Below, piece by piece: positions 7,603 to 63,819 of a stretch of 64,000 nt of DNA. Source of the stretch: Albugo candida (lineage: Eukaryota); NCBI GenBank assembly GCA_040437565.1, contig JBDOQK010000003.1:1-64000 (forward strand), in the 5' to 3' direction. The notes beneath the pieces are model-generated. The model was given only the letters and a program-made list of their open reading frames with translations. It had not been told where the DNA came from and made no database searches. Each line of letters starts with the position of its first letter. The stretch's first letter is position 1. Position numbers and translations under genes: made by a program.

Positions 7603-9070
7603 AAAAATAAATAGAAAAAACAAAAAAAAAATTATTTAAATAGACAGACATTTAGCGCTAAGGTAAAAAAATGAAGGAGCTAGCACCTCGGATACCTATC
7701 ATCCCACCAAAAGGGGAAGACCGCGAAGGCAAAATAAATTGGCCATCAGCCAATGTTCCACCACTTCTTTTGGTTACCCATAACGAAAGCACGTTCTCCG
7801 CTAATGACGGTTTGAAACGCCTTTAGCTGCTGGATAGGGAACTTCCATTGCGGAAGAAAGGTCAAGGAGGAAGTATTCATGTGAGAGAATTCATGATGAT
7901 GAGGAACCCAATTTAAGGACCTCTAGCATTGGATGGAAAAAAACGAGAGCGGTTTCTTGCGCTACCAGAAGAAGCATGTGTGATTATGCACGCTGGTGTC
8001 CAGCACGATGGCTGTGGGAATATCAGGACCATTATGATCAAGTTCGCGATGGAGCCATACCTATATTTAAGGCTCAATTTCCAGGCATACAAGCCCTTTT
8101 TCCCTTTGATGACGCCACAAGCCGTGCTTCATTTACCAACAATGCTCTCCATGTAAACCAAATGAACCTTTGTCTAGGTGTAAAATGTATTCCCATGCGG
8201 TCGACAAACTGGGGTGATGGATTTCATCAGAAGATGACTTTCCAGAGGATTATGCTGACGAAAAACCTCATCGAAAATCAAAGAGCATAAGGACGCGGTA
8301 TTCAGCGGGTAGGACTCACGTTTGACTGCCATGGACAGTGTCCTCCGATGTTACAAAACCGCTGCGCAAGAAAAATTACCGCAAACCAGCCCGATTTTCT
8401 GCAGCAGAAGTGCATGTTGGAGGAACTGATTGTGCGTTCTGGCCACATATGATTATATTTTGCCCAAAGTTTTATTGCGAGCTTAATTTTATTGTTAACT
8501 TTTGGGGTGCTGCCAAACGATTCGCTCGCAAAAATTGCAATCATTCCTGGGTTGGATTGAAAGAGATGGTCCCAAAGGCATTGAAATCGGTAACTCTGGA
8601 TGAGATATGCCACCACTACCGAAAGGCACAACGACTCATGGACGTTTATCGCAAAGGATTAGGCGGTAAAGCCGCGGAACATGCGGTCAAGAAATACCGT
8701 TCGCACCGACCTGTGCCGAATTCCATCCTGATGGACATAAACTTTCCTGCAGCACGATATTGGATATGTATTACAGAAGCGAAACATTGCGCTCTCTCAT
8801 TGGCTACAGTATATATATCTATTAATAGAAAATATTTGAATGTGGTCACATTTCCATCTCTCCATACAAAATCATTAGAATTCGCCAAACTTCAACCCCT
8901 ACTGTCTCTACTAATATAAAGATACAAACAATCTGGCTCCATTGTAGGCAAGCCAAGTCAATGTGCTTTCCGTATATGGAGCGCATTTTGCTCTATTCTA
9001 ATTCTTATTGTATAAGTAGGAGCTCTTGTCGATGCAATTTATGGTCTGATCATAAGTTTCTTGCACTGTA

Positions 9071-11100
9071 GAATTTCGAACATATAAAAGCGTGAGGATG
9101 AACTTGCGCGATCTTGAACATCGCATTGTTGATTAGGCACAAGTGCCGTTGACAATACGGGACCTTGACGTGAAAAAGCATCGGCTATCACATTCAAATG
9201 ACCTTAAACGTGATGCAGTTTGAATATAAATTGCGAAAAGAATCTCAAATATCAAGCCAGCACAGGTGAAACTTTTGTATGATGAATAAACCATTTGCAT
9301 GCTGTGTTGTCTGTGTAGATGCCAAATGCACGAACATAACGATAATGACGCCACTTCTTCAATGCAAGATTGATTGCAAAACGTTCTTTTTCATGTTTCA
9401 GCCAATTAAGCTCATGAATTCCCAGATTCTTGGAAAAGAATGCAATGGGACATCGCCACCAGAATGAAGCTGAGAAATAACTCCACCAACACAATATCCA
9501 GAGGCGTCCGTTGTCACAATGAACCGTTTGGCATGATCTGGTAGTTTCAACACAGATGCGTCTTGTAAAGCGGACTTGAGTTGCTCAAACTCCTGAGTCT
9601 GTACATTCTTCCATTCCCAAACATGTTCTTTCTTGACTAGAGAGACAAGTAGTAACGAAGGGGTTGCGTAGTCACGAATGAAACGACGATAATAACCAGC
9701 CAAATCCAAGAAACGTAATAGTTATTTCTGTTTTGTCGGAGTCGTACACTTTGCAATATCTGCTCTCTTTCGAGTATACACTGTAAGTCCCTTGACCGAA
9801 ATTGTATGACCGGCCAAAATGACATTTGGACTGATGACAGAATAACTTCTCACGCCGAAGAACTTCAAACAGAATTCCAGGATAGTCAACGTGTTCGTCC
9901 AGATTAGTGGAGAACACACAAATGTCATCTAGATAGACAAAAATGAATTTGTATCTCGCAAAAAGTACTCGCATGATACGAGACCAAACACCAGGCATAC
10001 CAGTCAATCCCGTAGGAGCCACACACCACTGATGACATTCCGCATGTTTGCGATAGGCAGTATACTTGCGCCTTTTAAATGCGATCCACATTTGATGATA
10101 GTCTTGGGCCAGATCCAGAACTGAAACGATGACACAACCACACATCTGAAACATCTGATGAAAACATTCGTCGATGTTAGGAAGTGTAATCTTCGGAATA
10201 ATCGTCTGCGAATTGACGTAACGTTAATCAATGACCCATCGAAGAGGTAGATGCGCATTGTCAGAGCATACCCATTCGGATCGTCATATGTTTTTCCCAG
10301 TAATAGGGTCCTTTTTGGGTACACCAAATATATCTAAAACCCATGGAGAGTCTGAAATTCCGATCCAAACTTTCTTGAGCTTTTGCGCAACGAACATATC
10401 AAGTGCATCTTGTTCGACCTTGGATAGGCGAGACGGGGCACGGTTGCTATGTATAGCATCTGGTTTCATAATGAGATCAAAGTCAAACAAACGTGAAGGT
10501 GGATCTCCATCAGTAAGTGTCTCTGGAAAGACATCTTTAAACTCCTCCAAAAGCGTAGTAATCGATCAAATTACCCTTATCAACCTCCGTCATTAGAGCA
10601 CAGATCTTTACGCGATAGACTTCATCGTACTCCTGGTTTTTGAATTTGCGTTTGCAAGTACGCTGCAGCAATTTCCACATCAACTTCGCTACTTGTACCC
10701 ACACTCGTGTGTGTCGAAGAAAAGCGCTGATGCGGAATTGAATTGCATGAGAACGCCAAACAAGTTTGGTTGGAACTTCGTAAACCAGGATTTTGCCCAA
10801 GATTACATCATGACAGAGCCCAACGGTCATATCATGATTTGTAAATTGCGAAATTAAAATCGATCAAATATGATAGTTACAACCCCTTTTTGATGGGGAG
10901 AATCTTTGTGGAAGTTCTATCAAATCTTCTAACTTGAGAATCACCAGTGTGTCATTTTCTTCACCGAGCTGGGACGAACGACATTACAGGTTGCACCGAT
11001 ATCAAACATAATAGTGACAGGTTTTCCATCACAAGTTCCTTGTTTACGAAAAAGTTCATTCTCCGGATGCACCGGATCCATAGTCGACGTCAAAATCTCT
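9071..11100 (-). pseudogene. Ty3/gypsy pol (protease/RT/RNase H), disrupted
   Basis: LDLAQDYHQ, FVYLDDICVFS (RT YxDD), LAGYYRRFIRDYA, VTTDASGYCVGGV, IYTDN (RNase H); many frameshifts. Confidence 0.9.
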
Positions 11101-26825: not shown

Positions 26826-28887
26826 TGTAGCGGATTCAACTTGCATAGACAGTAGTCTTCGAACTATCTTGAAGGAGCGATCAGTCAATGAGAGGATTTA
26901 TACATTCATTCTTAACATTGTTTTTAATCTCAATATAACTTTCCATTTTTCAGCACTGAGAAGTAGTTGTGCTTTCGTTATAGGTTATGAGCCCAAACAC
27001 ATCAGCTCCAAATGACATCCTCACGGATGACAACTATTTCATGTGGGAATTTAATGCACGCATGACCCTCGCGCACAAAGACCTGTTGAATCACGTTATG
27101 ATCAGGCCAGAGCCTGCAGTGCTGCAGGTCCCTAATGAAAAGTCGCCGACATGAAGGCTTTGGCTGTGCTGGTGAAGCTGCTCTCTCCAACCAATCAGTG
27201 TATGGTTCGGGAATGTGAGTCGGCAATTGAGTCTTGGGAGGTTCTTAAGACGTTCTTTGCGAAGAAAAAACTTCACAACCGGGTGCAACTTCGAAAGCAA
27301 TTACATGAGTTTGTGATGCAGACTGGTGCCGGTCTTACGGATTATCTACTTAAGTTTGATGAACTGTTTCTAAAGCTCAGGGCGGCCGGTGACAACATGG
27401 ATGATGAGGAATAGCTGGTTTTACTTTTGGGAAGTTTATCATCCGAATATGATGATATGGTACGCATTATTGAGGCACACAGCAACGTGACACTGCAGGA
27501 CGCAAAAGAGATGCTCCGCCGGGAATATGACACTCTTCAGAGGCGCGACAAGAAGGAAACCGCTTTCAANNNNNNNNNNNNNNNNNNNNNNNNNNNNNNN
27601 NNNNNNNNNNNNNNNNNNNNNNNNNNNNNNNNNNNNNNNNNNNNNNNNNNNNNNNNNNNNNNNNNNNNNGATTCGAACAATGTCGAGCAGACACATGTAT
27701 TTTTGCTCGATGCAATCATGCAAACATCAAGTCACTCACATACATAGTCTTGTATGTGGACGACCTCCTAGTTGGAAGCAAGTCAGATGCTGAGGCAGAC
27801 ACGATATATACAAGGAATTAACAATTAATTTTACTGTTAAGTCAATTGGAGCTGCGCGATTTATTTTGGGCGTGGAAGTGAATTATTCACGAGAAAAAGG
27901 GGAGTTGGTGTTAAAACAGTCCCAATTTCTTGTGAAGTTGGTCTCGAAGTTTGAGCAAAGTGTGGCTATGCAGTTCGCAATCCTATCTGTACAGGCCAGG
28001 ACTTGACTCCTGATGAGTCACACCCAATGCTTAAAGGCAGCACTGCGTACCGCAAATTGGTCGGTTCGCTGCTGTATATTGCGAACGCAACGCGACCAGA
28101 TATTAGCAATGCGATGTCAGTATTGTCGCAGTACTTGGACCAGCCACGACAGATGCACTGGCATGCGGCTTTACGCGTTTTACACTATCTTATGGGAACA
28201 CAATCGCACGGAATCACGTACAAGAAATCGGACGACAACAAGATTATGCTTCGGACATGCTGTGACGTGAATTAGGGAAATGACAAGAATACTCGTCGAT
28301 CTACATCTGGTGTATTGATTTTGCTCGGTTGCGCGGTTGTCGTATACAAAAGCAAGCGCCAAACTTCGGTAGCTTTGTCATTTGCTGAAGCAGAATATAT
28401 GGCACTGGCGCTTGCTGCACAGGAAATTATTTGGATTCGTTACTTGCTCAAAGAGATGGGTGTCACGTGCAATACCGCGACTACAGTGCACATGGACAAT
28501 AAGTCGGCGATAAGTATTGCGACGAATCAAGGCTATACACCAAGAGCCAAACACATTGACCTCAGGATGCATTTTTTTCGGGACCACGTTGAACAAGGCG
28601 AGATCCAGCTCAAGCATATCCCGTCAGCTGTGCAGCTTGCTGATTACTTGACGAACCCACTTGGTGCACCGCAATTACCGCAACTACGCAATGAAAGTGG
28701 AATTCTCGAGAGTGCAAGTTGAAGGGGAGTGTAGCGGATTGCAACTTGCATAGACAGTGGCCTTCGAACTATCTGGAAGGAGCGATCAGTTATGAGGGGA
28801 CTTGTACATTTACTCTCAACATTGTTTTTACCTCTTAATATAGCTTTCCATTTTTCAGCACTGAGAAGTAGTTGTGCTTTCGTTATA
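26826..28887 (+). mobile_element. Ty1/copia LTR element (internal gap)
   Basis: LTRs 26826-26982 and 28730-28887; 5-bp TSD AATAT; PBS GGTTATGAGCCC; PPT GAAGGGGAG. Gag RVQLRKQLHEF, RT YRKLVGSLLYIANATRPDI, RNase H AEAEYMAL..DNKSAI..KHID..LADYLT. Confidence 0.93.
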
Positions 28888-32504: not shown

Positions 32505-34031
32505 ATGCTCCACCTCGCTCGTCTCACATTTATCAGGCTAATTCTGTGTCTACCGATCTTCAAAGCAACAAAGTTGTCGCTCCAAGTACGTGGTTTTGAG
32601 CCAGATCTTTTGATACAATTCGAACAAGGAGAAGTGGTCATACTATATTCGACTAATCGATAAGTGAAGCTACTAATTTTTTGATATTATAGTTCGTTTG
32701 CGATCAGGGGGTACGCAGATTAGAGCACACACGTGTCAACGATGATTACTGTGACTGCGAAGATGGAAGTGATGAACCAGGAACGTCTGCTTGTTCGCAT
32801 ACCGCGGCAACGTTCTATTGTGGGAACGCAGGATATATTCCCCAGCTTATTTCGACCTCGCTGGTTAACGATAACGTGTGCGGTACGTCCTGACCTAGTA
32901 GCCTATTCATATCTACTGTATTTTTCACGTTGTCAAAAAATTGACACCCAAGATTGCTGCGACGGATCCGATGAAGCGTTGCTCAAATGTTCGAATGAGT
33001 GCGGTCGCTATATGGAAGAGTTTCAAACGATGAAAAGTAAAGCTTACGGAATATATGACGCAGGTGCAAAGGCGAGAAATGAGATTGTGAATCAAGGAGT
33101 CTCAAAAAGAAATGCTGATGAGAAAGAAAAAGAGACTCTGGAGGATCAACGAGCTTCTTTTTTAGTCCTTGTGGATCAGCTTAATAATCGTAAGCTACTT
33201 GAAGAAGAACTACAAGAAAAAGAGCGAGCTGAAAAGGTTGAAGGCAGTCAGCAAGACGTCATCGCCAAGCTTGGATTGCTAGAACTTGACGCAGAGAAGC
33301 TTGCTGTATTGTTGGTTGAGTTACTCACTTTGAAAATTAGCAACGAGGCGAATCATGAGCAGCTCATTTTAGAAAAGATACGAGACCAGAGAAACTTACT
33401 GGGGCTAACAGATATTCCTCTGCAACAAAAATTAGGAAAACATGAAGATACGGAAACGTCTCCCAAGTCAGAGAATCCTGGGAGGACTGGGACGGACTCG
33501 GAGGAGGTCGTGGATAGTCCGTTCGAGAAGCTTCTAAATCAAATAAAGTCTTCACACGCATTTGTAAGGGAAGAAACAAAATTAGCGCAAGAGAAACATC
33601 AGGCCGCACTCGATGAGCTGAAGCAATTGGAGGAAAGAATTTACATTCTCGAGCAGTCACTTAATGCGAACTATGGACCCCAAAGCGTTTTGTACTCTCT
33701 GCGTGACTACTGTATAGAAGCATCTCCGAGCCATTACAATTACAAGATTTGCTTGTTTGGTCAAGCCTATCAGAACTCTGTATCATTAGGTGTAATGGAC
33801 TCCGTCAATGTCGAAGACGACACATTGATGCAATTAAGTTTCACAAATGGCGAGCATTGCTGGAACGGCCCACAAAGATCTATAGTCGTCACTTTAGAGT
33901 GCAATCCTACTATGGAATTACTTGAAGTAGAAGAGCCGTCGGTGTGTGTGTACAAAGCAAAGCTAAAGTCGTCCATCGCGTGTGATGCATATCATCTTCA
34001 GCGCCTTAAACGACACTTTCAGGAGATATAG
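32505..34031 (+). CDS. Glucosidase II beta subunit (PRKCSH/Gtb1-like), 3 exons: 32505-~32636, 32693-32882, 32953-34031
   Basis: Hydrophobic N-terminus; exon 2 VNDDYCDCEDGSDEPGTSAC..FYCGNAGY..VNDNVC|DCCDGSDE; coiled coil; C-terminal MRH domain (YNYKICLFG..FTNGEHCWNGPQRS..EEPSVCVY). GT-AG introns restore the frame. Confidence 0.93.
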
Positions 34032-49100: not shown

Positions 49101-50218
49101 ATGCATAATAGGAAATCCTGGTTATACTTGAATAAAAATTGAGCGGACCTCTGGTATTATTCAGTCGTTGTAGAACCTGTCCTAGCGAAACGTTTCGAAA
49201 CGAAAATAGGAGTCATTACCTAAATATTCACTTACTTCAAGTTATTCTTTTGTGTGAGAAAAAGCAGCTAAGAACTGATGGCGATTGGGTGAATGTGTCA
49301 CGGATAACAATTCATTGTATTTAAGTAATGTTATTCAAGTCTGGAAGCTTGATTGGTTTCCTATTATCATTATATGTAGGAACCCGGTATAGCCACACAC
49401 CCTTTTTGGTATAGCCGCACCCCTAACTTAATTGAGAACACCGGTATCATTACATCCTCTAAATATCTTGATAAATGAGAACCGTTATCGGCACACTCGC
49501 TATTATCAAATTCGCTATATGCACCTATTTACATTGCTATAAGTATGCTAAAGTAAATTCCCTATCCTCACTATGCCACTTACTTCACCCCCGGAACACA
49601 TCTATGAGACCTATGAGTATGTGTGGCAAGAAGGCTGTTCCACAAAGCAAGCTCGCATAAACCGCGACAAATACGGAGATACTAGGAAGGTGTGGCTTGC
49701 TTGCGTCCACGGTGGTCGTTAGAAAAACAAAGGCACGAGGATCCGCCAAACATCAAAGCGGCTTCTAATGTGCCCATGGCTAGTCACCACTCAACGCCAA
49801 CTGAGTCAAGATCCTGTTCAAAGATTGGCGAGTGAGTGTNNNNNNNNNNNNNNNNNNNNNNNNNNNNNNNNNNNNNNNNNNNNNNNNNNNNNNNNNNNNN
49901 NNNNNNNNNNNNNNNNNNNNNNNNNNNNNNNNNNNNNNNGATGCATAATAGGAAATCCTGGTTATACTTGAATAAAAATTGAGCGGACCTCTGGTATTAT
50001 TCAGTCGTTGTAGAACCTGTCCTAGCGAAACGTTTCGAAACGAAAATAGGAGTCATTACCTAAATATTCACTTACTTCAAGTTATTCTTTTGTGTGAGAA
50101 AAAGCAGCTAAGAACTGATGGCGATTGGGTGAATGTGTCACGGATAACAATTCATTGTATTTAAGTAATGTTATTCAAGTCTGGAAGCTTGATTGGTTTC
50201 CTATTATCATTATATGTA

Positions 50219-52711
50219 GGAACCCGGTATAGCCACACACCCTTTTTGGTATAGCCGCACCCCTAACTTAATTGAGAACACCGGTATCATTACATCCTCT
50301 AAATATCTTGATAAATGAGAACCGTTATCGGCACACTCGCTATTATCAAATTCGCTATATGCACCTATTTACATTGCTATAAGTATGCTAAAGTAAATTC
50401 CCTATCCTCACTATGCCACTTACTTCACCCCCGGAACACATCTATGAGACCTATGAGTATGTGTGGCAAGAAGGCTGTTCCACAAAGCAAGCTCGCATAA
50501 ACCGCGACAAATACGGAGATACTAGGAAGGTGTGGCTTGCTTGCGTCCACGGTGGTCGTTAGAAAAACAAAGGCACGAGGATCCGCCAAACATCAAAGCG
50601 GCTTCTAATGTGCCCATGGCTAGTCACCACTCAACGCCAACTGAGTCAAGATCCTGTTCAAAGATTGGCGAGTGAGTGTGGTCGTTGCAACACTCACTCG
50701 CCATTCTTTGAAGTAGTTTGATCCTGCTTTTCTTGCCACCAGGTAAGACATTTACAATCTTCGAAAACGTTAACGAACGGAGTTTCTCCTTGGTCACACT
50801 TTGTCAAGGATTTCATTACACTGTTTATCTGGTTCTTTACTACCTTCCTCATCCTACCATGAGCCCCTGACCGTGTGATTATCACTTAAGTCTGACTGCG
50901 AATCTAGGGAGGCAGATATTTTCCAAGCTTATTGCTTCAGTGAGCTCAAACCGCTGCCCACACTGCTGGGGATCGAACTAACGACCTCCGGCAGGGGGTC
51001 CGTGCGCTCAAGTGCTTAACCGACTGAGCTGGGGCGGACCCCTCTCCTTGGTCACACTAGAGGAAAGTGCCATTAGCATGAGCTTGATCGGGACCCCTCA
51101 TCGGGTCAATTAACTCGCCTCTTGATTGCACTTCAGCCTTGCATCTCGACAGACGATGATTTTCTTCGAATAAAGTTCTTATAGCAGATTCGACATACAA
51201 AACCAACAGGCGAGTAAAATGCTTTCCAATAAATCATTCCCCAACATCGACTAAGAGCAGAAAAAACTCCAGGTTTCAAATGCCATTGCTCCATGCCATG
51301 GGTGTGACATGCACAAACCAGTAATATTCCCTTTGTTATGTTTTCTTGCGACACGAATCAGAAGATGATTACATTTGGGCACTTCGGCAAATGAGGATAG
51401 CTTTTCAAGATAGAATCACTGGTCCGATTTTCATTACCGGAAGCGAAAAATCTGCTTTGCATATGGCATACACTAAATATGTCCTGGCAAACGCTAAGAA
51501 GCACTTTGCAAAAGACGAAGACTAGAACGAATTTTTCAAAAAGTGGTACGGATTGTACTGCTCATCCACTGAACGGGAGTTCGAAGAGAATTGGGTGCTC
51601 CTCAAAGATGCTATTAATGAGACTGGCTATGCGTATTTACATTCCACATATATTCCGCACAAGGAAAAATTCATCCTTGCTTGGGCCAAAAATTTAACCA
51701 TTTTGGCATGTAGCTACATCTCGTGTTGAAGGTGGACATGCAACCTTGAAGAAATGGATTGCAGTTTCAACAGGGGATTTGGATTTGGCAACAGTTTATG
51801 ACAAATTGGTTCTCGTAGCTCAACAGCACCAATGAATAAGTCGAAAAGCTGCATACGATCGTTCACACATTATCGTCCGCCTTAGTGGGAGCGTCTGGAC
51901 ACTGTGAATAGAAAGATTCCACATTATGCATTGAATGAAGTATGTAACATTAGTGTATGCATACAGTTGTGCACAGTACTGACAAGATATGCAATGACCA
52001 TATTTTGCTTTCTGCAGGACTTCAAGCAGTAACAAAAGGCACTATCGATGGAGAACAATGAAAAGTGCACTAGAACATTCACGAGCACTAAAGGATTGCC
52101 GTGCTCTCACGCCATCAAAGAGCTGCAAAAGTTGGGGTCAATATTGCATGAAGCTCATTTTCATCAGCACTGGTGGCTTCAAAGGCCTGTGCATCCTAAA
52201 CTGCATCATTCAATGTCTTGTCAGGAAAAAACAAGCTTTTAGGACATTATGAAAAAGTTGCAAGAGCGTCATTAGGACTTGCCGCCACACAGGCAGCGCC
52301 TTTTTGAGAAGGATCTCGATTGCCTTGCATCTGTTACAAGACAAGGGGTAAATGATCCTGCCACAGTGGCCTCACGAGGACGTCCCAAAGGGTCAACGAG
52401 TAACAAACGAGATCTGTCCATTTGAGTACGTTGAGAGGGAGGAGCAGAATGCGGGACTCGCAACCAAGAAGGTCACAACAGGCGCACATGTGCACAGCCC
52501 AAAATTAACAAAACATATCTGTAATAATTTAGAGGTGTGGCGATACGGTTTTCTAATTTAATTTTGATTTTAATTTAGGGGATTTAGCGAGTGTTCCGAT
52601 ACCGGTTCTCATTTATCTAGAATATCTAGAGGGTGTAACGGTGCCGGTGTTCTCAATTAAGTTAGGGGGTGCGGCTATACCAAAAAGGGTGTGTGGCTAT
52701 ACCGGGCTCCC
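50219..52711 (+). mobile_element. MULE transposon with ~120-bp TIRs, decayed transposase
   Basis: TIRs GGAACCCGGTATAGCCACACACCC../..GGGTGTGTGGCTATACCGGGCTCCC; TSD TATATGTA. Motifs HFGHVATSRVEGGHATLKKWI, GLPCSH, HFHQHWWL. Confidence 0.9.
50801..51042 (-). mobile_element. tRNA-derived SINE inserted in MULE
   Basis: Full-length family member; 16-bp TSD TCTCCTTGGTCACACT (50785-50800/51043-51058). Confidence 0.88.
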
Positions 52712-54315
52712 TATATGTATCATCCTCCGGTAAATGGTGATAAATGGTACCGGGATTACACTCAAACTCGATTTCATTCTCTAATTGTATAATTGCACTG
52801 TCTTTGAGCTCAACAACACCTTTGGCTTCCTCCATTGCGGCTTCCAAACTTTATTCCGCTTACCCACTCAGCTTGTTTCCTCTACTTTGAACACCGTTTA
52901 GAGTCGACAGCTACTTGGATGTTTCATTGCGTAAATTGGACGGTGGTAGAGAAAAGCTAAGGAGGAATGAGGCGCCTATTTATAGCGCGCGGTGTCACAG
53001 ATGTCGGGTTCTAGAACTTTTGCTAAGACGCAGAAAAGGGACTGTTATAACGTGCTCCCCCAAATACTAGAATGGCATTATGAGGGAAGGATTCTAGTGT
53101 TGCTTACTTAAGCTAGACACGCTCAACGCACGACCAAGAAACCACTGAACGATCGCGGAATGTATATTACCAACTCTGTCGATACTATTTTCTGTGCTTC
53201 GGTAATCACGTTCCTTTACAGCCGATCCCGTCTTCTTCCCCTCTAATAATTCTAGTCCGAGAATAATCATGAAAGATCGGTAAAAGATTCTAAGTATCCG
53301 CACGAGCAGTTGATATAGGACGGCAGGAGCAAACGGAATCATATGAACAGACGAGTCATACTTGAATTGTCAAACGTAACCTTCATCACTTCCCTTCAAT
53401 GCCACATGCCGCTCCGCCGACACAATGCTATTATTTTACGTCAGATCTTTCGAACGCTTTTTCTACCTTATTTGTTCTAGACTTCTCTGTTGGTTTCCGT
53501 TATCTCTTCCGTATACAAATCTTGAATCATTCTGGTAAATAAGCCTGTGTGAGCGACCATACCATTTCTTTAATTTGCATGCTTGATTCCGATTGCAATT
53601 TTTCTTAATCTCTCGTATGGATCTAGCTGTACCGACATACTACCCATCCTCTACATCTGTAAAGAGTTGGCCAATTAATTGTGAGCATTATCAATGTATC
53701 GTCCTTCGGAATATCAATATAAGCTTTGCCTTGGCGTGATCGATATCTCTTGAGTAAGTTTTCAATCGTAAGCCTAGAGAAATTTCGATCTGTCTGTTTC
53801 TAAATAGTCGCACACTGACCTTCGAGACGAATATCATGAGGTTTCTTTATTGTTGCATGAATCAGCAACGATTGTGGAAGAATGTATGAGTTGTACTATG
53901 ACGTACTACTTCAATTTCTTATGATAACTTTGAAGGAAGATGTATGTTGTTCTTCATATCAAATGATATTTGATAATCAATCAGCCCCGCTGATTTTCAA
54001 TTCTCGTTCCATACAATTGATATGTCTGAGTAGTAAAGAAGCCTTCGTCACGAGGGCGTCACTTTAGTGACTCAATCTTATTATCCAAAATCAATGAGTC
54101 AAACATATGTCGTGCAAATTTAGCATGAGGTAGTCCGCAGCAATGCTTACATGTCTTAGAATGTTTTGACCGATTTTAATTTATCTTCTTGATACTCGAA
54201 TTTTGAAACCACTCACGTCTGGATCATGCAGCAAGTCATCGAGCAGTTTTAACCCGACAGACCGCTCTCCATTCCCGGCGTCCCCCTCCTAGTTGTCTTC
54301 TCCAATATAAAGCAT

Positions 54316-55060
54316 ACCTACGAGGACGTGATAGTAGTCAGCAAGCGGATCAACGACGACGGCTTATTCTCCACCTGGTCGATCGTCTACCATCCTGTCT
54401 CCAAGGGCAACGAGACGATGAAGCCGGGCTCGAAGATCATGACGTCGCAGACCTGGTTTCGTCCGCACTGTGACGCGACGGTGCGACGAGATGGTGTGTC
54501 GAAAAAGCTGTCCCACTACGTGGCTGCCCAGATGTAGTCAACTGCACTTTAGCTGGGTGGCAATCTTGCGACCTGGCAAGGTTAGAAGTTCACGTTGACG
54601 AAGATTGCGGACGATTCAGAAATGCCGCTGTTCACCTGCTCACGGACGGGCAATTCGCCGCTTCTTCCTTGATCCACAACAGAGGGACCGTTGAGCAGCT
54701 GTACGAGGATGATCCGGCATGGACTGCGTAGGCAACGTCGAGTTCGACCCCAGGATCGTGTAGCCCTACCGTGTGTACGACCCCTTAGACGTGAGCTCGT
54801 TGCCGACCTCGCGTTACAGATACTACGTCTTTGATCCGGGCAGTCAGCTGTACACCTCGCTGGCAGACTACGGTATCTGCCAGTTCTGGCAGCTGTCACA
54901 TGTTGCCCGCGACAAGCAGAACTACGTTAGCGAGGTGCCGAGGAGGCTTTCAATGCGGCGAGCAAGCTGAAGGTTGCAGGCGTCAGGCTTGGGGAGATGG
55001 AGACGCTGTCCATGCTGTCGGGCGGCCTCGTGACCTGGATTTTGCTCACCAGCAGCAAGG
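54316..55060 (+). pseudogene. Divergent DNA-dependent RNA polymerase second-largest (beta/RPB2-like) subunit, C-terminal fragment
   Basis: Colinear motifs TYEDVIVVS (54316), LGGNLATWQG*KFTL..EMPLF (54553-54635), FWQLSHVARDK (~54883) and GVRLGEME (54979-55002). They parallel RPB2 NQEDS / GDKFASRHGQKGT..DMPF / YQRLKHMVDDK / GGLRFGEME. Contains stops and frameshifts. Confidence 0.85.
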
Positions 55061-55901
55061 CAATCAATGTATAGCGTAGACTTCTCCAACGGCTTCCAAG
55101 AAAAAGTAAGAATTTGATCGTCGCTCTGACCCATATCCAGAATTTTGTCGATGACATCAGCTGAGAAACCCAAGCTGTTGGCCAACGGCTGCAGGAGTTG
55201 TAGTTCATAACCATAATTGTGATGTCTTTCTGGTGAAGATTTGGATTTGATAGAAAGTACTTTTCGTATGGCTTTTTTCAACCAACCTACCCAAAGAATT
55301 CTGTCAAATTACGGTGCGGATTGAGAGCGCCAGTGCATGTATTGTACGACATGCAAATAGCCGATTGATAAAGTATCAGCACAAAACGAAGCTTCGATGC
55401 GTCCTTTTACAGCTGTGATCAGACAACGTCGCGATTCACAGAAGCTTGATATGTCAGAAAACACAACTGGGGACCTTTTCCATCGATCGGTACTGTATTT
55501 TGCCACACTATTGAAGAACTGTGAACGTATTCTCCAGAAGATCCATATCCATTCTTCGTGGGAAGCCTTTTCTGCGTCTTACGAGTTCACTGGTACGGAC
55601 AGGTAAAAAATCGAGAAGCGGAGATGTCGCATATAGATCAATATTGCAAACGCGTTACTGCTCAATATTGCTCAGCTTCTATGTCGATACACTTCGAGCA
55701 CCAAGAACGCGTTTGAATGAAGAAATGCTCTCGGCGAGAAATAATGTACTTTATATACTTTAAAAGAACCTTCGTTTCATTGATAACCTACCTTACAGTA
55801 TACATCTGCTAATATCCCACACATACCACATAATCGAGTTTCGAGTAAATTAAGTGGGATAGCTTCATTCGAACTAGGTGACTAGCTTCACCGCTCACAG
55901 T

Positions 55902-56154
55902 TGATTGGAGGATTGAATTATTTAACGGAAAGAGCAGGTTATTTGCTCAACCATTAAAATTTCCAGTTTCGTCTGATCGCAAAATGAACGGGTATGAATA
56001 TCGATCCGTGTTAGAGAGAATCGAGGTTAATGGGCGACTAACTTGGCCGCATACAGGTGATTGGAGGATTGAATGTTATTATAACGGAAATAGCAGGTTA
56101 TTTGCTCAACCATTGAAATTTCCAGTTTCGTCTGATCGCAAAAGGAATGGGTAT
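55902..56154 (+). repeat. Imperfect ~95-bp direct duplication
   Basis: TGATTGGAGGATTGAAT...GCAGGTTATTTGCTCAACCATT.AAATTTCCAGTTTCGTCTGATCGCAAAA occurs at ~55902 and ~56058. Confidence 0.8.
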
Positions 56155-57221
56155 ATATCGATTTGTGTTTCATTTTATATTTCGTTTTCTAATTCAAGTG
56201 AAGGAGCTCCGACAAGGAAAAATTGGATGGGAGCTCATCTGTGTGGTATGCTGCGATTATGCATCTGGTCGTGTTATTTCGGTTTGATCGTCTGTTTGTT
56301 GAGTGTCTGTCTCCACCCGCCTATTTGTTATTTACTGCACCAGTGGTAACAGAGAAGACGCACCAAGACTGCCGGGATACATTAGACGTACATTAGACGT
56401 ATAATGTACTGCTTCCATTGTGAGCCCTTCGAAGATTCAGGTAATATATCCTGATATCTTTTATACTATCCGAGATGTGCATATATATCCCTTTCGAATG
56501 GGCAAGCATGCATTATATTTTATCGAGAGAAGAATACTCGCTCGGACCTCGTGTAAGGTCTCTTGATTTCTAGTTCACTTGAATAAAGACAAACTGTTTC
56601 GATCCTTCTCTGAAACGTTTTACGTTGTTTTCTGAATACACTAATAATATAAGCTATCCGGTGTATAGACGTTTACGAAGGAGCATAATGAATTTCTGAT
56701 CTGACAGTCATCTAATATAGTGCTTATATAACATATCACAGTGATATAGAATTGAATTCTACTTGGCTGGCATTCCCAGCGTAGTCAAACCACCTGTCTA
56801 CGTGCACATCGGCTCATCTCGCATCATGTGCACCGACAAATCGAGGGAAGGCTTAATGTTCTGAGCATCTAAGCCTCCCTGTCCGACTCAATAGCGACCC
56901 GCACAACACCAGCATACCAGCCAGGCCTACCTCAACGCCTGCATACGCTTCCATGGCGAAGGCTCCATCAAGTATTTCGGCAATCCCGAAGGGATACGCC
57001 CCGCCTTTGAGAAGTGCACGAAGTCCAAGCCGTACCGATGCAGACCTCATCCATTGCGCTCGACTTCCTAGGCATCCTCCAATGCATAAGCGTGCTCGCT
57101 CGTTTAAAAAACGCCTGCAAAAGCGGTGCAGATGGTTTGCGTAGTTGCCGGTCATGGTGGATGCGACGGGACATGCGAAGTGGCAGTCTTCCAGGTACGC
57201 TGGGTAGCGCGGACGGGAGAG

Positions 57222-58803
57222 TCAGTGGTCCAGTGAGTCGATGTCGTCGCAGGCAGTGGCGTGCAGGACAGGCGAGTACGTCTTCGAGAGGAAGTTGACG
57301 TTCACTGAGTCAGCAATTGCAGCATCTGGGTCGCCATACGTGGCGCAGAACAGAGCATGGGCCAGCTTGGCTTCTTTCGTCTCGAGAGCACTGATGCGCG
57401 ACAGATGCCAACCAAGCTTCACGGATAGTAGCATCGCGAGAACCTGTCGGCGGGGTCCCTCAGCTGTGCAACGTCGGAGCTATTAAGCGCATAGACTGCT
57501 GTACCGCGTGTCCGATCGCCCAACTCAGCGTCTAGCCTGCCACTCACGTCTCTGGTGACGAAGAACGACTGCTTCTCCGTGAGCAGCAAAAAGAGCAAGC
57601 TGGACTTCTCCGAGCCGGGACCATGCTTATCCTTGTCCATGAGCTCCTGCTGAATCGCACCCCAGACGTGAAAGGACAGCTTCATCCCAGGAAAGCCGTG
57701 CTCCCTAACCGAGTACTAAGGGCCTTGAACTCTTAGGCGAAGTCTGTCCGGCCTAGGCACCCACTGAGTCACGATACCCTGCTGAAAAGTCACCGTCTGG
57801 AGCAGGAAGTGCTTGAGCTGACGACCCACCGTGAAACCCTCAGAGATGCGTATGTGACTCTCGGTCAAGTCGTGAACGCTGTCATTGCACCTCTGTACGA
57901 ACGTCCCCATCCTTGCTGCCCTGTTGCAAAGGTGCGAGGAGAACGTGTACCATTGCGTACGCTTGCAATAGAGAAGGTCGTGAACGAGTTTTATCTTCAC
58001 GCAGCTTGCGTCTTGATCTACACTCAGAGGAGGCAGCGTCATGAAGTCAAGCACCTAGCGTCAAGGGTGGAACGGTCGAAGTCTGATGCGTCTAGCGCAT
58101 GTGCCACCTTGTCGCGACTGAACTTCGACAGCGTGTTGAGACAAAAGTTTGCCCCACCCTCCTCTTCGCAGCGCTTAACCATCATGATAGACACATGCAC
58201 CTCATCACCGTTGAAGTCCAGGTTCAGTGACGCGCAGTCATCCCGGCGCACTCCGAAAGAGGGTTCGCTCCAGAAGCGCAGACGTACACACCTGACAGAT
58301 TCGTATGAGAGAACAGGGCAGCGCGAGAGGATTGCGTAGTCATCCTTCTTCAACTTGCGCCAGCTGTAGTAAGGTGACCCGTACTCGCCTTACTCCAAGC
58401 GCATGGGAACCATCATTCTCTCTGCCCAGCGACACGGCAACCACACTTCGAAGTACGGATCGGTCCAGGCGCACATGGCGACACCCTAGCAGTGTTCAAC
58501 GACTTAAACCCATGCAGCCGTACTTCAGGAGTCCACGCTTCCCCTAGATGCAGTTGCGCAGACTGACCACGTACTGAGACATTGATGTGTCGTGATCGGC
58601 TAGTTGAAGATTCATCTTGTCGCGTTCTCTCAGTTCATACGGACTCGATGGGTCGGAGAGACAGGGTATCAGGAGAAGCGCGTCCCGTCATCACTGCCAA
58701 GGTGCCCCATACTGCGCTCGTGGAACGGACAGTCTTCGACGAGACCGACGCAGTTTGACTTACTCGCTGTCCACTTGACGTAGCGCAGGTTGTTGACGTT
58801 CAT
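57222..58803 (-). pseudogene. Divergent, compact DNA-dependent RNA polymerase largest (beta'/RPB1-like) subunit
   Basis: Colinear SLRNCI*GKRGLLKYGCMG (cf. LKGKEGRIRGNLMG), EVWLPCRWAERMMVP and KKDDYAILSRCPVLSYES (cf. DGDxVLFNRQPSLH). CASLNLDFNGDEVHV at 58224-58201 matches CxPYNADFDGDEMN. The 3' limit is approximate. Confidence 0.88.
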
Positions 58804-61800
58804 GGCGAAGCGAAACAGACGCAACCTTTGTGCAGCCGTTAACCCTTACACCTCTTCTCAGATCACGCCTTGCATCAAACACAGCAATATTAACGCCGTC
58901 GTCTATCCCCCTCATCTCGACCAGTCGATTGCTGGAACGCGGCAAAGTGTATGCGGCCGTAACACGTTAGCGCACTCAGTCTGGCATGATGCTCGTCGTA
59001 ATCGTCCTCGCTCTCCAAGCTGTAGCTGCGTCAGCGGCAACCACCTACATAGAGTACGAGGATGGCAACTGCGACCCGTTCCTCGGAGGTGGGTACTTCT
59101 GCAGCGCCTGCTCTACGAGGCAATTCCTGACTGATAACTGAAACGGTATCTGATACAAAAGGTACAGCGTCGTACACCAGGACAACGGCGAGAAGGAGAT
59201 GACCCTCACCCACCATTGCGGTGTAGCAGTAGTCCTGAGGACAGTGCGCACTATAAAGGCTGCAAGATCGTAGCGTCCGCACCGTTTCCTCATAACTCGC
59301 GACACGACTCAACAGCGATGCAGCGACTCCGTCTCCCTCTCTAGCCCAAGACTGACGCAAAACATTAACCAAACGCACGACGACGTTGTACCTCTGCCGG
59401 CGTTTACATCTAGCCCGCTCACAACTACACAAAATTCAGCCGCCAGGAGTTAACCTCTAATGCGGAGTGAGCATTCGTGCGAGATTCCTGTGGTGAGGAA
59501 AATATTTCGGGATTAGAGCATTACGTGCAGAGATCCGTTAGGCGGAAGTGGGTGCGGTAGAAGGCATAAAGCGCAGAGCTTTCGGTTAGGTGAAGCTGGG
59601 TGCGGGATGATAGCCAATGTTTTGCCGCTAGCCGAGGAGCAAAGAGAGGTGGAAGTGCGGCGAGTAGCTGCAGACCAGCCGTGGGATCGACGTAGGCAGT
59701 GCTCGGCCTTGAGCTAGACAGCTGAAATACACTGTAGAGCATAGGCAGGACACCGCGCTTCGCGCTTAATTTCTTTTTGCTACACGTCTTCCGACTAGTA
59801 CATCTCGTGTTCTCCGTTGCTGAAAAGCTGTCCTTGTCATCGCACCCACCGTAGCAGTCGACAAGACGCACGCATGAACCTTACTACGACGTATCCCGCC
59901 TACCTGAAAGACGAGAGGCGGAGGTCGAGCCCACGAATTTTTGAACACGCATGCCTCTGCCCACTACCTGCACCACGCGAGGCGGAAGCGGAGATCCTAC
60001 CTCCTTCAACCACGAGCCTCGCAACACGCAACCCGTGAGGCGGGAGCAGAAGCATTCAACTTAAATCGTGTAGTAGCTGTACTAAGCCTGGAGCATCACA
60101 CCTTTATTTCTACCCCCAAAGCAACACATTAGTAGCGCACTGGCACGGACTTTGTTCCTACAAAACACTTAAGGATTTGATAGCAATATTTTTACTCTCC
60201 AAATTACGATTAAAAACATATGTTATACGAAATATAGAAAGAAACCATATAATGAATGGATATAATTATGTGAAGATGTGGTGTTGTTTCACGAATATAT
60301 ATCCAACGCATTTTGCAGCGTCTGTAATAGTTCAGACGATTCATGTGTCACCACCCTAGCTTCCTTTATGGTCAAGATTCCTAGAACACTGGCTTATCGA
60401 GTCTGGTAGAATGCTTCCGATATTTTGTCGGAAAATGAGACTAACTTAACTCACGGTCGATAAGCATACACATAACCCTTTGAAACGTAACGATGGGTAC
60501 ACTTTTTCAGACAGAGTGCTGGCGCGTCGATTGTATCACTTGTAAATTTAGTACTCACCATTTGCATCATGTATTACCGAGTTAGCTAATCCTGTTCGCT
60601 TCCCCTAGATTCCTCTTCTCACTCAGAAAAATGGTTTCTTTCTTTATCTTCCGAATGACTCGAACATTATCACCAATTTTGTCATCACCGTTTTCGTTCT
60701 TCTTCTCGTACGTCTGACGAGTTCTTTTCTTATGACTGGTGAGAAGCAGCCTTAGTTAAGAGCTAAGTCAATGCTTGCATTTGGGACGAGTTTGATCAAA
60801 GTGAGAAACCAAGCGTAAATCTGAATATGTCTTGACTTTGTCGTTCCCAATTAAGAATCTCTACTGATTAAGCACTCTTGGAAACATGTTACCATTATGC
60901 CTCGGAATGGTTACCCTACGAGCCGTGGACCCGTTTGTAGCAGAATGGGTTCAAGAAGGTGCCATCAAGCTGGTCTAATGAGCTACCATGGATGTATAGT
61001 ATGAATAATCGCAATCACTGCCTAATTTGAAATCAAACCAAGCACCGTAGTTGACGACGTGGAAAGATCCAACTCATCTTAGATCGTGTTTCGTGGATGA
61101 CCATGTACCGCACTTACATAGTGAGATTGACAGGCTTCACATGTTGTAAGGACAGGCTCGAATTTCCGCGAATACGATCGGGGGATGGATCCTTATGTCT
61201 CACAATCTACTCCTGGGTACATATGAGCTTCTGAGTTTTCGAAGACTACGTCAACATTTGTACGTGGTTCTGTGCATGTCTGTGTCTTTTCGTTTTCGTG
61301 AGTTTTTACTGAGAGCGTGCTAAGTGGACAAAATCGGCACGTATGATTTCTTTAAGATGCTCCATAGTCGCGTTTAGTGAGCTATGAGTAAAGTTACAGC
61401 TTACAAATTGCCGCTCTAAGATAGTTAACGAATAGAAGAAGAGGTAGTTCATCCCCACAAGCGTTGCCGTGAGTACTAAAATATCAAATTGACAACCATA
61501 AATAAGTTGAGGTGTCATAGGGCCTTCATATCAAGGGTGCCAGCATCTTCGAGGTACGTAGGTGCTTTGCTACGTTAATTTCCTTCCTAACAGAATCCGC
61601 AAGGTGAGGAGCATTCAAAAGTCGATTGCTTACCTTTTAGTAGAGTGGTTTCATTGTAACTTTTACTGATAGCCTATATTTATATACCCTCAACCTTTAG
61701 CACTTGAAAGGATATCCTTGCTCCAAAAAATCTTGGGCTACTGGGTGAGATTACTAGTTGGTGTCTCATGGATCAACAATCAGCTGTATTTTTCGTTTCA

Positions 61801-62238
61801 AATGAATGTGATGCCGGATATCAACTATCTCTTCTCATCCTTCGGTTTTAATTCGGCATTTGAACTCATTTTCAATCCGAGACCGTGGAATAGGACGCGT
61901 TGTTCATCAGCCAAAAGAAGAAATTTCAATAATTTTACAATATGTTGCACCGCTATGATATGATACACAGCGCTCAAACAGCTGTCATCAATGTAATAGT
62001 ACCAATGATCAGCTTGTGAAGTACATCGCTGATGTATGCACGAGGTCATCGCGAAACCTGCCTAAAATTGTCATCTTTCTCTGTGGTTTTGATACTATAT
62101 AACTTCTTCGCTCTTGACGATTACGCATAAGTATTGGATTCGCTTTATGCAAACCTATCTTCGCTTTCAAGCGCGTCTTGGCGTTCTCAAGATCAATTGA
62201 ATTTCGCATTTTCTCGCTCCAAGAAGCCTTATGCTAAA

Positions 62239-63819
62239 TGTAACAACCTCCATTGTACATGCATGCATAGTTTTATATATAGTGCACGACACCTACAACC
62301 GACATTCCCATATTTTTGCGGCCAAATTTCCAAAAATCTATTTCATGCAGAGTATACTTCTAACTTGGTAAAAACCTGTTTTGTGAACCAATCACGTGAC
62401 AAATACCTGCTTTGTGAACCAATCGGAATCCGAAATTAATATGTAACGCGAAACTATAGGGTGGACACCTATCTAGATATATATGTAGANNNNNNNNNNN
62501 NNNNNNNNNNNNNNNNNNNNNNNNNNNNNNNNNNNNNNNNNNNNNNNNNNNNNNNNNNNNNNNNNNNNNNNNNNNNNNNNNNNNNNNNNGTGATGCACTT
62601 GTTGCAAAGAGAATGAACCTTGGCCCTGGTGGAAAACAACCAAAAATGAGGAATGATTTAAATAAATCATCCCCGGAGTTACTGTAAACAATTAATTAAT
62701 ATGTGCTTTCTCAAGGCCAACGACTTATGGAGACAATGTGCCTTAGCATGGTTTATTCAGACGATTATGAGAATGAGGAACTACGTGGTAAACCAAAGGG
62801 AATCAAGGCTGTTTTAAGCGAACGTGGTCTTTGGCAACCTGGCTTATGTTTGGTTTGCTGAAGTGATGTCAGATGCTCCGATATTCTTTCTTGCTGCGCT
62901 CGCACTATCATGTCCCGACAGCCAGGTTTTGTGGCCCAGCGTGGATTACTTGAGGAGGTGATTACAGCAGCTGGGCATAAAGTTATATCTTACCCCAAAT
63001 TTCATTGCGAGTTGAACTACGTTGAGAACTTTTGGGGCGCCGCAAAGCAGTACACACGGAAGCACTGCAATTACTCCTGGGCTGGCTTGCAAGAAACTGT
63101 CCCCTCTGCCATGTCCTCAATCAGCTTTACAACAATTCGCCGATTTGCATGCAAGACACAGCGGTACATGGATGTCTACCGTAAGATTCTCAGTGGAAAA
63201 GCTGCCGAATATGCAGTGAAGAAGTACCGTTCACACCGTCGCATTCCAGCCTCTGTTCTTATGAACGTTAATGCACTTCTAAACTAGATTAGAGATATAC
63301 ACATAACCAACAAAGAAAATATGTAAGTCTATATCAGATTTCTAACACACTATCTATTTTCAAATGGTCCTTTCTAATTAGCTAAAACAATTATCTATTT
63401 TTAGGTGGTCCTTTCTAATTGGTTAAAAAAGTATCTATTTTTAGATGTCCGGCCAAATTTCCAAAGCTCCATACATAACCACGAAAATTTGCCGAACTTC
63501 AAAGGCTTCTAACTTCATCAAAAATAAATTTTGCAAAAATCCGACTCTATTGCCAGATAGCCACGGCAATGTACTTTTAAGGTATAGAGAGATATTTTTG
63601 TTCAAGTGTGTAATTGAGTGTCCCAAAAACATTTTGCGCACCGGGTGGAGGTGCTGGTTATAGGTGTCGTGCACTGTAGTTGGAGAACTGGACTAGCCAA
63701 TCAGATAGCTGAACCAGGATTCTTTAATTAAAAATCTTACTTTCCATTTTTTAGCAAATAGAGCTCCACCAGCAAATATCTTCCTTTGCTTCCACCCCCT
63801 TCCTCCTGCCGGCGTTACA
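62239..63819 (+). repeat. Gypsy 5' LTR (same family as 12538-12711) split by a DDE insertion; leader continues to the window end
   Basis: TGTAACAACCTCCATTGTACATGC... (62239) and ...CCGGCGTTACA (63819) rejoin into a homologue of the 12538-12711 LTR. PBS-like TGGGGCAC follows. Confidence 0.85.
62280..63676 (+). mobile_element. Long-spacer DDE family transposon (internal gap)
   Basis: TIRs TAGTGCACGACACCTACAACC / GGTTATAGGTGTCGTGCACTG+TA. ORF 62910-63287 YPKFHCELNYVENFWGAAK..KKYRSHRR. Confidence 0.88.

Follow-up and report, generated by a model that had tools for sequence, protein, structure and literature searches.

The stretch analysed here (positions 1 to 64,000, forward strand, of contig JBDOQK010000003.1 in the Albugo candida assembly GCA_040437565.1; hereafter the window) contains an island with the remains of the genes for both large subunits of a multisubunit RNA polymerase (RNAP), a beta'-like pseudogene on the minus strand and a fragment of a beta-like pseudogene on the plus strand (Table 1). 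An earlier note, made from the sequence alone, had described convergent beta-like and beta'-like pseudogenes at this place, and the alignments of the two genes to their intact relatives (P0101 for beta and P0003 for beta') bear out both their identity and their orientation. Its statement that both large subunits are present holds in the sense that both genes were identified, but only about one third of the beta gene remains, because both of its ends are missing, and of the two subunits only beta' is near full length.

The beta' gene gave a Pfam match to RNA_pol_Rpb1_2 (PF00623; 29.2 bits, cutoff 25.3) at 58039-58389 on the minus strand, the only one of ten open reading frame (ORF) pieces with a score above a curated cutoff. 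Its best full-length relative is P0003, an intact protein of 604 amino acids (aa), and a frameshift-tolerant alignment to this protein runs from 58915 to 57123, covering residues 1-599 of the 604 in 593 codons with 73% identity and passing through five in-frame stops (58546, 58498, 58392, 57718 and 57224) and seven frameshifts. The catalytic domain of a largest subunit is thus present, but its DxDGD triad is not intact: the three aspartates of the metal-binding loop (columns D234, D236 and D238) are invariant in all 32 aligned members of the beta' family, whereas the fossil reads NLDFNGDE and has therefore lost the middle catalytic Asp to Asn. With this residue gone, the beta' of the window is a member of the family by descent and not a working enzyme.

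On the plus strand, none of the three beta pieces matched an RNAP family when searched alone against Pfam. A 94-aa piece matched two 814-aa proteins, P0101 (75% identical) and P0102 (65%), both of which carry a precomputed PF00562 assignment, and the frameshift-tolerant alignment equates 54226-55032 with residues 446-721 of P0101 (267 codons, 73% identity), interrupted by five stops and three frameshifts. Tblastn found neither the 445 N-terminal nor the 93 C-terminal residues of this protein anywhere in the 64-kb window. Within the fragment the motifs follow one another in the canonical order that had been claimed for them, namely a remnant of GDK..GQK, then PLF, SSIHNRGT, HVARDK and GEME.

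Besides the lost Asp, the two pseudogenes carry 20 disabling lesions (10 stops and 10 frameshifts), twelve of them in beta' and eight in beta. Such a burden speaks against the idea that the locus was domesticated and still yields a useful product, for which one could cite the conservation of the locus among sequencing runs and a 145-aa catalytic-core ORF that is called as a protein elsewhere (P0002, 92% identical, six members). However, P0002 shares the Asp-to-Asn change and the called ORF is only a piece of a 600-aa fold, and we regard domestication as extremely unlikely. With 20 lesions and a broken catalytic loop, the locus is a relic that appears to be without function at present.

Table 1. 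Features of the RNAP island in the window, and copies of the octamer AAACATTT in two related soil contigs (L006 and L007, numbered by contig)
Feature	Location	Strand	Remarks
Left GC-rich patch	54223-55080	+	55.8% G+C; contains the beta-like pseudogene fragment
Remnant of beta active-site motif	54556-54591	+	GGNLATWQG*KF; intact relatives GDKLATWHGQKF / GDKLATSHGQKL
AT-rich spacer	55081-56799		40.3% G+C; about 1.7 kb between the patches
GC-rich remnant downstream of beta'	56800-57122		54.2% G+C; 323 bp
beta'-like pseudogene	57123-58915	-	55.6% G+C; PF00623, phmmer, tblastn and frameshift-tolerant alignment
Metal-binding motif of beta'	58201-58224	-	NLDFNGDE (translation)
GC-rich patch upstream of beta'	58916-60040		54.9% G+C; no Pfam family
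AAACATTT copies, L006	2656-2663, 6242-6249
AAACATTT copies, L007	1769-1776(-), 1876-1883, 5479-5486, 6126-6133

The two genes lie in DNA whose base composition sets it apart from the rest of the window. In 400-bp windows the G+C content reached 0.535-0.575 at 54200-55199 and 0.515-0.583 at 56800-60199, and upstream of 54001 it was 0.374-0.441 in all 27 two-kb windows, which agrees with the earlier description of two GC-richer patches in AT-rich host DNA. In 60-bp steps, four transitions were placed at 54200-54260, 55040-55100, 56740-56800 and 60040-60160, and the unique flanks of the island have 40.0% and 40.6% G+C, so that the island stands 15 points over host DNA with sharp borders. The right patch, about 56800-60040, agrees with the coordinates previously given, but the left border lies some 80 bp outside the former 54306. 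The right patch is GC-rich throughout, but the beta' gene takes up only a part of it, and the sequence upstream of the gene (58916-60040) is presumably further element sequence. Pfam recognised no family in nine plus-strand ORFs of the GC-rich patches or in the minus-strand ORFs of 58916-60040, and two protein searches with the 134-aa ORF at 59031-59435(-) returned as its sole relative a 115-aa, 99%-identical protein listed without sources, as are the window's own proteins.

Two facts would suit a contaminant or a chimeric join: intact relatives of these genes occur as separate small contigs, and the eukaryotic scaffold that makes up the window is rich in transposons and broken by twelve gaps of 100 N. 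However, the interval 49940-62489 is free of gaps. We placed on it the contigs of four runs from four studies (X6, X7, X10 and X11; none a possible source of the window), and in all four runs each of the four GC/AT borders was crossed by a single contig, with 0-11 differences per 3-5 kb in the border-crossing contigs. The contigs span 52870-55853 and 56319-60193 in X6, 52850-57884 and 57866-62267 in X7, 52850-55962, 55933-57884 and 58017-62267 in X10, and 53331-55323, 56003-57913 and 58120-60719 in X11. Read depth is flat over 52873-62090 (56-59 in most X7 bins) and rises to hundreds to thousands in the repeats on either side; at 50778-51196 and 62091-62489 it is tens to hundreds of times the single-copy value in all four runs (about 18,100 against 58 in X7), and the island therefore lies within a 9.2-kb unique block bounded by high-copy repeats. 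Because its borders are bridged and its depth is flat, the island is a fixed, single-copy part of the genome, with foreign DNA joined to host DNA, and an assembly artefact retains next to no probability; the junctions with the host scaffold, on which the earlier note had made its reading depend, are thereby secured. The stretch 53500-61000 is present in 20 of the 24 public runs listed, from 14 studies, the runs that contain it being from one organism with 34-38 Mb of contigs and from plant metagenomes; no RNA run was recorded for it among the 24.

Given a host location, the genes could be decayed duplicates of the host's own Pol I, II or III subunit genes, and the profile of the beta' family does fit eukaryotic largest subunits best in PDB (plant Pol V, 67.8 bits; Pol II, 50.6 bits). 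Yet these matches extend over only about 80 residues, whereas the alignment of the fossil to P0003, a 604-aa member of a separate family, shows 73% identity in 593 codons; in addition, the G+C content exceeds that of the host by 15 points with sharp borders, and the soil relatives described below have a family B DNA polymerase (PolB) and a D5-like helicase as neighbours of the RNAP genes. The probability of a host origin is thus negligible, in accordance with the earlier opinion that the genes are not simply decayed RPB1 and RPB2: their nearest relatives are the intact, compact proteins of 604 and 814 aa, at 73% identity.

In order to describe the family to which the fossil belongs, a 148-residue beta' piece (one stop read as X) was compared by phmmer with 1.84 billion representative sequences, and 61 proteins were matched at E<=1e-3, 33 of them at E<=1e-10. 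The matched region corresponds to about residues 120-290, and 27 of the 61 proteins are 547-622 aa long. Among the matches listed, only P0038 (1327 aa) resembles an ordinary long subunit; the region of its NADFDGDEMN loop is present as three consecutive copies and a later segment as two, and these repeats look like an artefact of assembly or of the gene model. The PF00623 cutoff was passed by seven of eight tested relatives (30-45 bits), with no other RNAP domain at E<=1, and cellular and bacterial largest subunits resemble the family profile in no more than a catalytic core of 80-170 residues (40-68 bits). With beta' subunits of about 600 aa and beta subunits of about 815-850 aa, the RNAP is as compact and divergent as had been proposed. 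It also appears to be a poorly described lineage, as suspected: a full-text search of the literature, outside subscription journals and supplements, found no paper on this polymerase family or on a double-stranded DNA (dsDNA) element of Albugo. In IMG/VR a 116-aa piece had no match, and the family alignment found only five weak matches, all of them partial, with 25-36% identity in stretches of no more than 140 residues.

The records of the family members indicate where intact copies may reside. The clusters of P0003 (14 members) and P0101 (15 members) both list contigs of 17442, 17444, 17448 and 17456 bp, and from these matching sizes the closest intact beta' and beta genes are apparently on one unit of about 17.45 kb, which many assemblies have yielded. 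Contigs of other family clusters measure 17573-17575 bp, 18.9-19.4, 19.6-20.9, 23.9, 28.0 and up to 35.9 kb. Within oomycetes, a related beta (CCA27707.1) is on a 17,624-bp contig of Albugo laibachii Nc14, a decayed 145-aa beta' piece (CCI47943.1) is recorded from Albugo candida, and a 547-aa member lies on a 5.3-Mb scaffold of Bremia lactucae. In the chytrid Batrachochytrium dendrobatidis the P0026 cluster has 22 members from several strains, on Mb-scale scaffolds and in forms of 613 aa and 125-584 aa, and this species may hold intact integrated copies of the beta' family. Further members are recorded from the chytrids Boothiomyces, Globomyces and Clydaea, the rust Melampsora americana and Rhizopus arrhizus, so that the family ranges over oomycetes and at least three fungal phyla.

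The position of the fossil was estimated with IQ-TREE from 41 rows of the beta' family, without references from nucleocytoplasmic large DNA viruses, LEF-8/9, killer plasmids or Pol I-III, the row of the window having an X at each break. P0003, the unnamed P0043 and the fragment P0005 of A. candida form one group with the window (Shimodaira-Hasegawa-like approximate likelihood ratio test, 100), and this group next joins Bremia and one unnamed fragment (100) and then a Batrachochytrium/Globomyces group (91). The end branch of the fossil measures 0.24 against 0.042 for intact P0003.

To evaluate how so short a protein compares with ordinary largest subunits, the intact P0003, and not the fossil, was modelled with AlphaFold2 from a 32-row alignment (mean predicted local distance difference test, pLDDT, 82.6; predicted template modelling score, pTM, 0.81). 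The model has the overall fold of a largest subunit. Foldseek matched it to the largest subunits of Pol IV, II, III, I and V, of archaea and of vaccinia at E of about 1e-8 to 1e-9; its best viral matches were the RPB1 homologues of poxvirus, an Aureococcus virus and pithovirus (about 1e-9 to 1e-10), and LEF-9 was matched more weakly than the giant-virus subunits (5e-6 to 3e-5). In VIA-align, residues 27-600 of P0003 run along the entire chains of Pol I-IV and of vaccinia Rpo147 (Pol II 14-1470, vaccinia 2-1251), with 380-530 aligned residues and Z of 15.0-16.1, all families being tied. The beta' of about 600 aa is therefore a miniature of the whole subunit and not its N-terminal half. Cellular Pol I-V and archaeal Rpo1 thus share with it the fold from clamp to cleft and the DxDGD loop, but they are two to three times longer and similar in sequence over only about 80-170 residues. 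Since cellular polymerases match equally well, the fold reveals no special link to giant viruses and is silent on lineage.

The gene neighbourhood of the family could be studied in two soil metagenome contigs. A scan of Joint Genome Institute (JGI) metagenomes with the family alignment gave 71 loci, and among these only L006 (23,672 bp) and L007 (20,328 bp) had full-length family matches; a 5.5-kb contig, L008, carries a 602-aa family ORF, and the remaining loci are ordinary RNAP genes. One further candidate, L009 (638 aa), was rejected as a compact member, since its Rpb1 domains are canonical (105 bits) and its neighbours are hydrolase and glycosyltransferase genes. About 14 kb at one end of each soil contig was examined (14.5 of 23.7 kb in L006). 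Both are tightly packed and colinear, with an L007 counterpart for nine of ten L006 ORFs. Along L006, small ORFs (-) are followed by a 599-aa beta' (+), a 366-aa orphan (-), three more orphans of 249, 173 and 480 aa (+), an 829-aa beta (-), a 750-aa PolB (-) and, last, a Walker-A protein of at least 460 aa (GGGGEGKS, +). As in the window, beta' and beta are convergent. The L006 beta matches PF00562 (43.4 bits, cutoff 23.4) and, below the cutoff of 32.1, PF04560 (18.3 bits); the PolB matches PF00136 at 133 bits, its nearest solved structures in PDB being Sulfolobus PolB1 and Pol delta. The Walker-A protein matches phrog_1156 ('DNA primase') at 8.6e-5, and its language-model features match Atlas clusters with D5_N, DUF5906, Pox_D5 or PPV_E1_C at 0.95; this protein is the D5-like helicase, of the SF3 type, referred to above. 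About half a dozen further proteins of the two contigs belong to no recognisable family, six ORFs of L006 counting as orphans, and the orphans had no match in Pfam, PHROGs or PDB profile searches. Two resemblances noticed by eye were discarded for want of support from any tool: that of the 366-aa orphan to a TATA-box-binding-protein strand pair (its AlphaFold model has a pLDDT of 33), and PD-(D/E)xK-like motifs in two small ORFs.

Compared with this arrangement, the window retains beta', 323 bp past the 3' end of beta' and the middle of beta, the two RNAP genes being the only genes that survive. The AT-rich spacer occupies the position that four orphan genes and the 3' end of beta have in L006 and L007, and neither tblastn nor profiles of the L006/L007 proteins found any element protein in it. 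It contains a tandem duplication of about 157 bp (55877-56154; units 83-95% alike), with about twofold depth in one run. When 21 ORFs of the soil contigs were compared with the window by tblastn, nothing was found outside 54265-55122 and 57539-58836, but such queries share only about 30% identity with the fossil and could miss weak remnants. Profiles built from seven pairs of L006/L007 proteins and from three single ones had no positive score against the six frames of 53800-60400. In both soil contigs the orphan gene convergent with beta' overlaps the beta' end, and hhalign aligned 22 columns of 56895-57071(+) with this orphan pair at the expected place (a weak match, E = 0.22), so that 56800-57122 may be the 3' end of such a gene.

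PolB, a D5-type helicase and both large RNAP subunits, which occur together in L006 and L007, are hallmark genes of Nucleocytoviricota, and a fragment of an endogenised giant virus has to be weighed as the source of the island. The best viral fold matches named above are in line with it, and the available text of PMC7017919 describes fossils of 'fundsalphavirus' in 14 fungal species that have PolB with D5, SNF2 helicase, methyltransferase, RPB2, RPB5 and RPB1. These fungal fossils, those of Mycodnaviridae and those of oomycetes have in common with the present family the core of PolB, D5-type helicase and RNAP beta and beta', and like our fossil they carry stops and frameshifts in host genomes. 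However, the listed viral largest subunits are mostly 830-1430 aa and align in part, while about 600 aa cover the whole fold here, and cellular polymerases fit this fold equally well. Nucleocytoviricota genomes are roughly 100 kb to more than 2.5 Mb, much larger than the contigs of 17-28 kb on which the 600-aa beta' is found; leaving aside short fragments and host scaffolds, the family contigs are about 14-38 kb, with recurring sizes among the longest listed. Among the Pfam matches in the 14 kb of L006 there was none to a capsid, A32, VLTF3, RPB5, SNF2 helicase or methyltransferase family, whereas in the published fungal fossils RPB5, SNF2 helicase and methyltransferase stand beside PolB and RPB1 is annotated as N- and C-terminal parts (PMC7017919, available text). 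The 14 host species given there do not overlap with the hosts found here, and by a term search the accessible text of a paper on Mycodnaviridae (PMC13533422) does not mention RNA polymerase and names, of our hosts, only Batrachochytrium, once, in its reference list. A giant-virus origin is consequently unlikely.

Other self-transcribing elements known from fungi are yeast-type cytoplasmic killer/helper plasmids, or virus-like elements, of the pGKL2 type, and the island could be an integrated piece of one of them. Such plasmids are 13-36 kb dsDNA replicons with a protein-primed PolB, a 15.5-kDa RNAP subunit, a capping enzyme and a DEAD/H helicase. With the present family they share a family B PolB of their own, a strongly reduced RNAP of multisubunit type and pieces fixed in nuclear genomes, but they have a DEAD/H helicase and a capping enzyme where the soil relatives have a D5-like helicase. 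The likeness as small dsDNA replicons with PolB and reduced RNAP (PMC6211774 and PMC13348850, as far as their accessible texts go), the nuclear integration stated in the part available of PMC11848437 and the occurrence of yeast-type elements in Mucoromycota and Zoopagomycota as well (PMC13348850, same portion), together with one family member recorded from Rhizopus, would be compatible with this origin. However, in the available part of PMC6211774 the plasmid RNAP is a beta-beta' fusion with a small subunit and without most of the clamp, whereas here, in the window as in L006 and L007, beta and beta' are encoded apart on opposite strands and are not fused, and beta' spans the whole fold. Moreover, the PolB matches PF00136 at 133 bits and, in PDB, archaeal PolB and Pol delta, the protein-primed PolB family of Pfam was not listed at E<=0.1, and the G+C content of 46-56% differs from the more than 75% A+T of the plasmids (PMC4431711, in the text available). 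We thus consider a killer plasmid very unlikely. Short beta- and beta'-like subunits of comparable size, also encoded separately, are found in LEF-8 and LEF-9 of baculoviruses and nudiviruses, which have arthropod hosts and large genomes; the LEF-8/LEF-9 families of Pfam were not listed at E<=1 for eight beta' relatives or at E<=0.1 for the L006 beta.

The foreign composition of the island, its integration, the identity of its genes, their pseudogene state, the family and the gene neighbourhood being matters of observation, we hold it very probable that a small, self-contained dsDNA element left the locus behind as a chromosomal copy, now dead, truncated and with an internal deletion; the closest intact relatives of the element lie on contigs of about 17.5 kb. 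The earlier idea of a fossil virus or selfish element with its own transcription machinery is thus supported by the family, by the PolB and D5-like helicase of the soil contigs and by the integration. A piece of such an element would have entered the Albugo host genome and kept the convergent beta'/beta arrangement; the genes between beta' and beta, and everything beyond beta residue 445, would have been lost from the inserted piece, and neutral decay would have followed. By comparison with poxviruses and killer plasmids, the parent element would be replicated by its PolB and D5-like helicase and transcribed by its two-subunit polymerase, independently of the host nuclear machinery, and live copies of a close relative probably persist in Albugo.

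Several observations weigh against this interpretation of a small autonomous parent. The recurrent contig sizes could also be explained by repeat-flanked integrated copies, the genes of the closest relative are deduced from the soil relatives, in which beta' identity is only 30-32%, and about 1.45 kb of GC-rich fossil DNA has no match at all. Of the neighbours that would be expected of a virus or selfish element, PolB and the D5-like helicase are present, but capsid, packaging ATPase, capping enzyme, integrase and terminal repeats were not found in the roughly 14 kb from one end of each soil contig, where tandem-repeat scans detected only a 49-bp duplication near one contig end, so that the terms 'self-contained' and 'virus or plasmid' stand on thin ground. 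The broader proposal, namely that there exist undescribed autonomous dsDNA replicons of about 17-28 kb in oomycetes and in fungi (chytrids, rusts and Mucoromycota), with what may be the smallest complete two-subunit RNAP of cellular type, a PolB of the RNA-primed type, a D5-like helicase and an intact, possibly episomal relative in Albugo, is in our judgement evenly balanced between true and false. If it is true, such replicons would hold a 'giant-virus informational core' in a genome no more than a tenth as large as those of known members.

The DNA elements of eukaryotes that are known to transcribe themselves fall into two extreme kinds, the large nucleocytoplasmic viruses on one side and the killer plasmids with their fused, clamp-less polymerase on the other. 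The fossil points to a third arrangement, namely contigs of about 17-28 kb that combine PolB and a D5-type helicase with separate, miniature beta and beta' subunits covering the whole fold. If autonomous, these elements would supply structural and mechanistic studies with a minimal multisubunit RNA polymerase made by nature, would provide a fresh case for the origin or shrinkage of the replication-transcription core of large DNA viruses, and would be a first candidate dsDNA virus or plasmid from oomycetes of the white-rust and downy-mildew groups. As a neutral relic, the locus itself has its chief use as dated evidence that element and host lineage have been associated for a long time.

A possible regulatory signal was noticed in the soil relatives. 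The octamer AAACATTT occurs three times in L006 (0.48 expected) and four times in L007 (0.23 expected; none of 200 shuffles reached four), six of the seven copies being 23-46 nt upstream of the start of an ORF on the same strand; no copy is found in the fossil. Its placement hints at a candidate promoter or start-site motif of the element's own polymerase. The L007 beta' ORF (1781-3736, 651 aa) probably starts at the ATG at 1922, since this gives a size typical of the family and a copy of the octamer lies 46 nt upstream.

Elsewhere in the window, the N gap at 5753-5852 is flanked by identical 131-aa minus-strand ORFs (5030-5425 and 6068-6463), and the gap at 3890-3989 by a comparable duplication; these look like scaffolding duplicates or recent tandem repeats. 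Putative integrase-, reverse-transcriptase- and copia-like ORFs lie at 517-1005, 9672-10223 and 28276-28722, and the ORFs at 8326-8919(+) and 62862-63287(+) have, by eye, common transposase-like stretches (FxCELNxxxNFWGAAK, KKYRSHR). Finally, a 435-aa ORF at 32724-34031(+) is an ordinary host gene similar to the beta subunit of glucosidase II (PRKCSH-family clusters of the Atlas, 0.90-0.93), which confirms a eukaryotic host.

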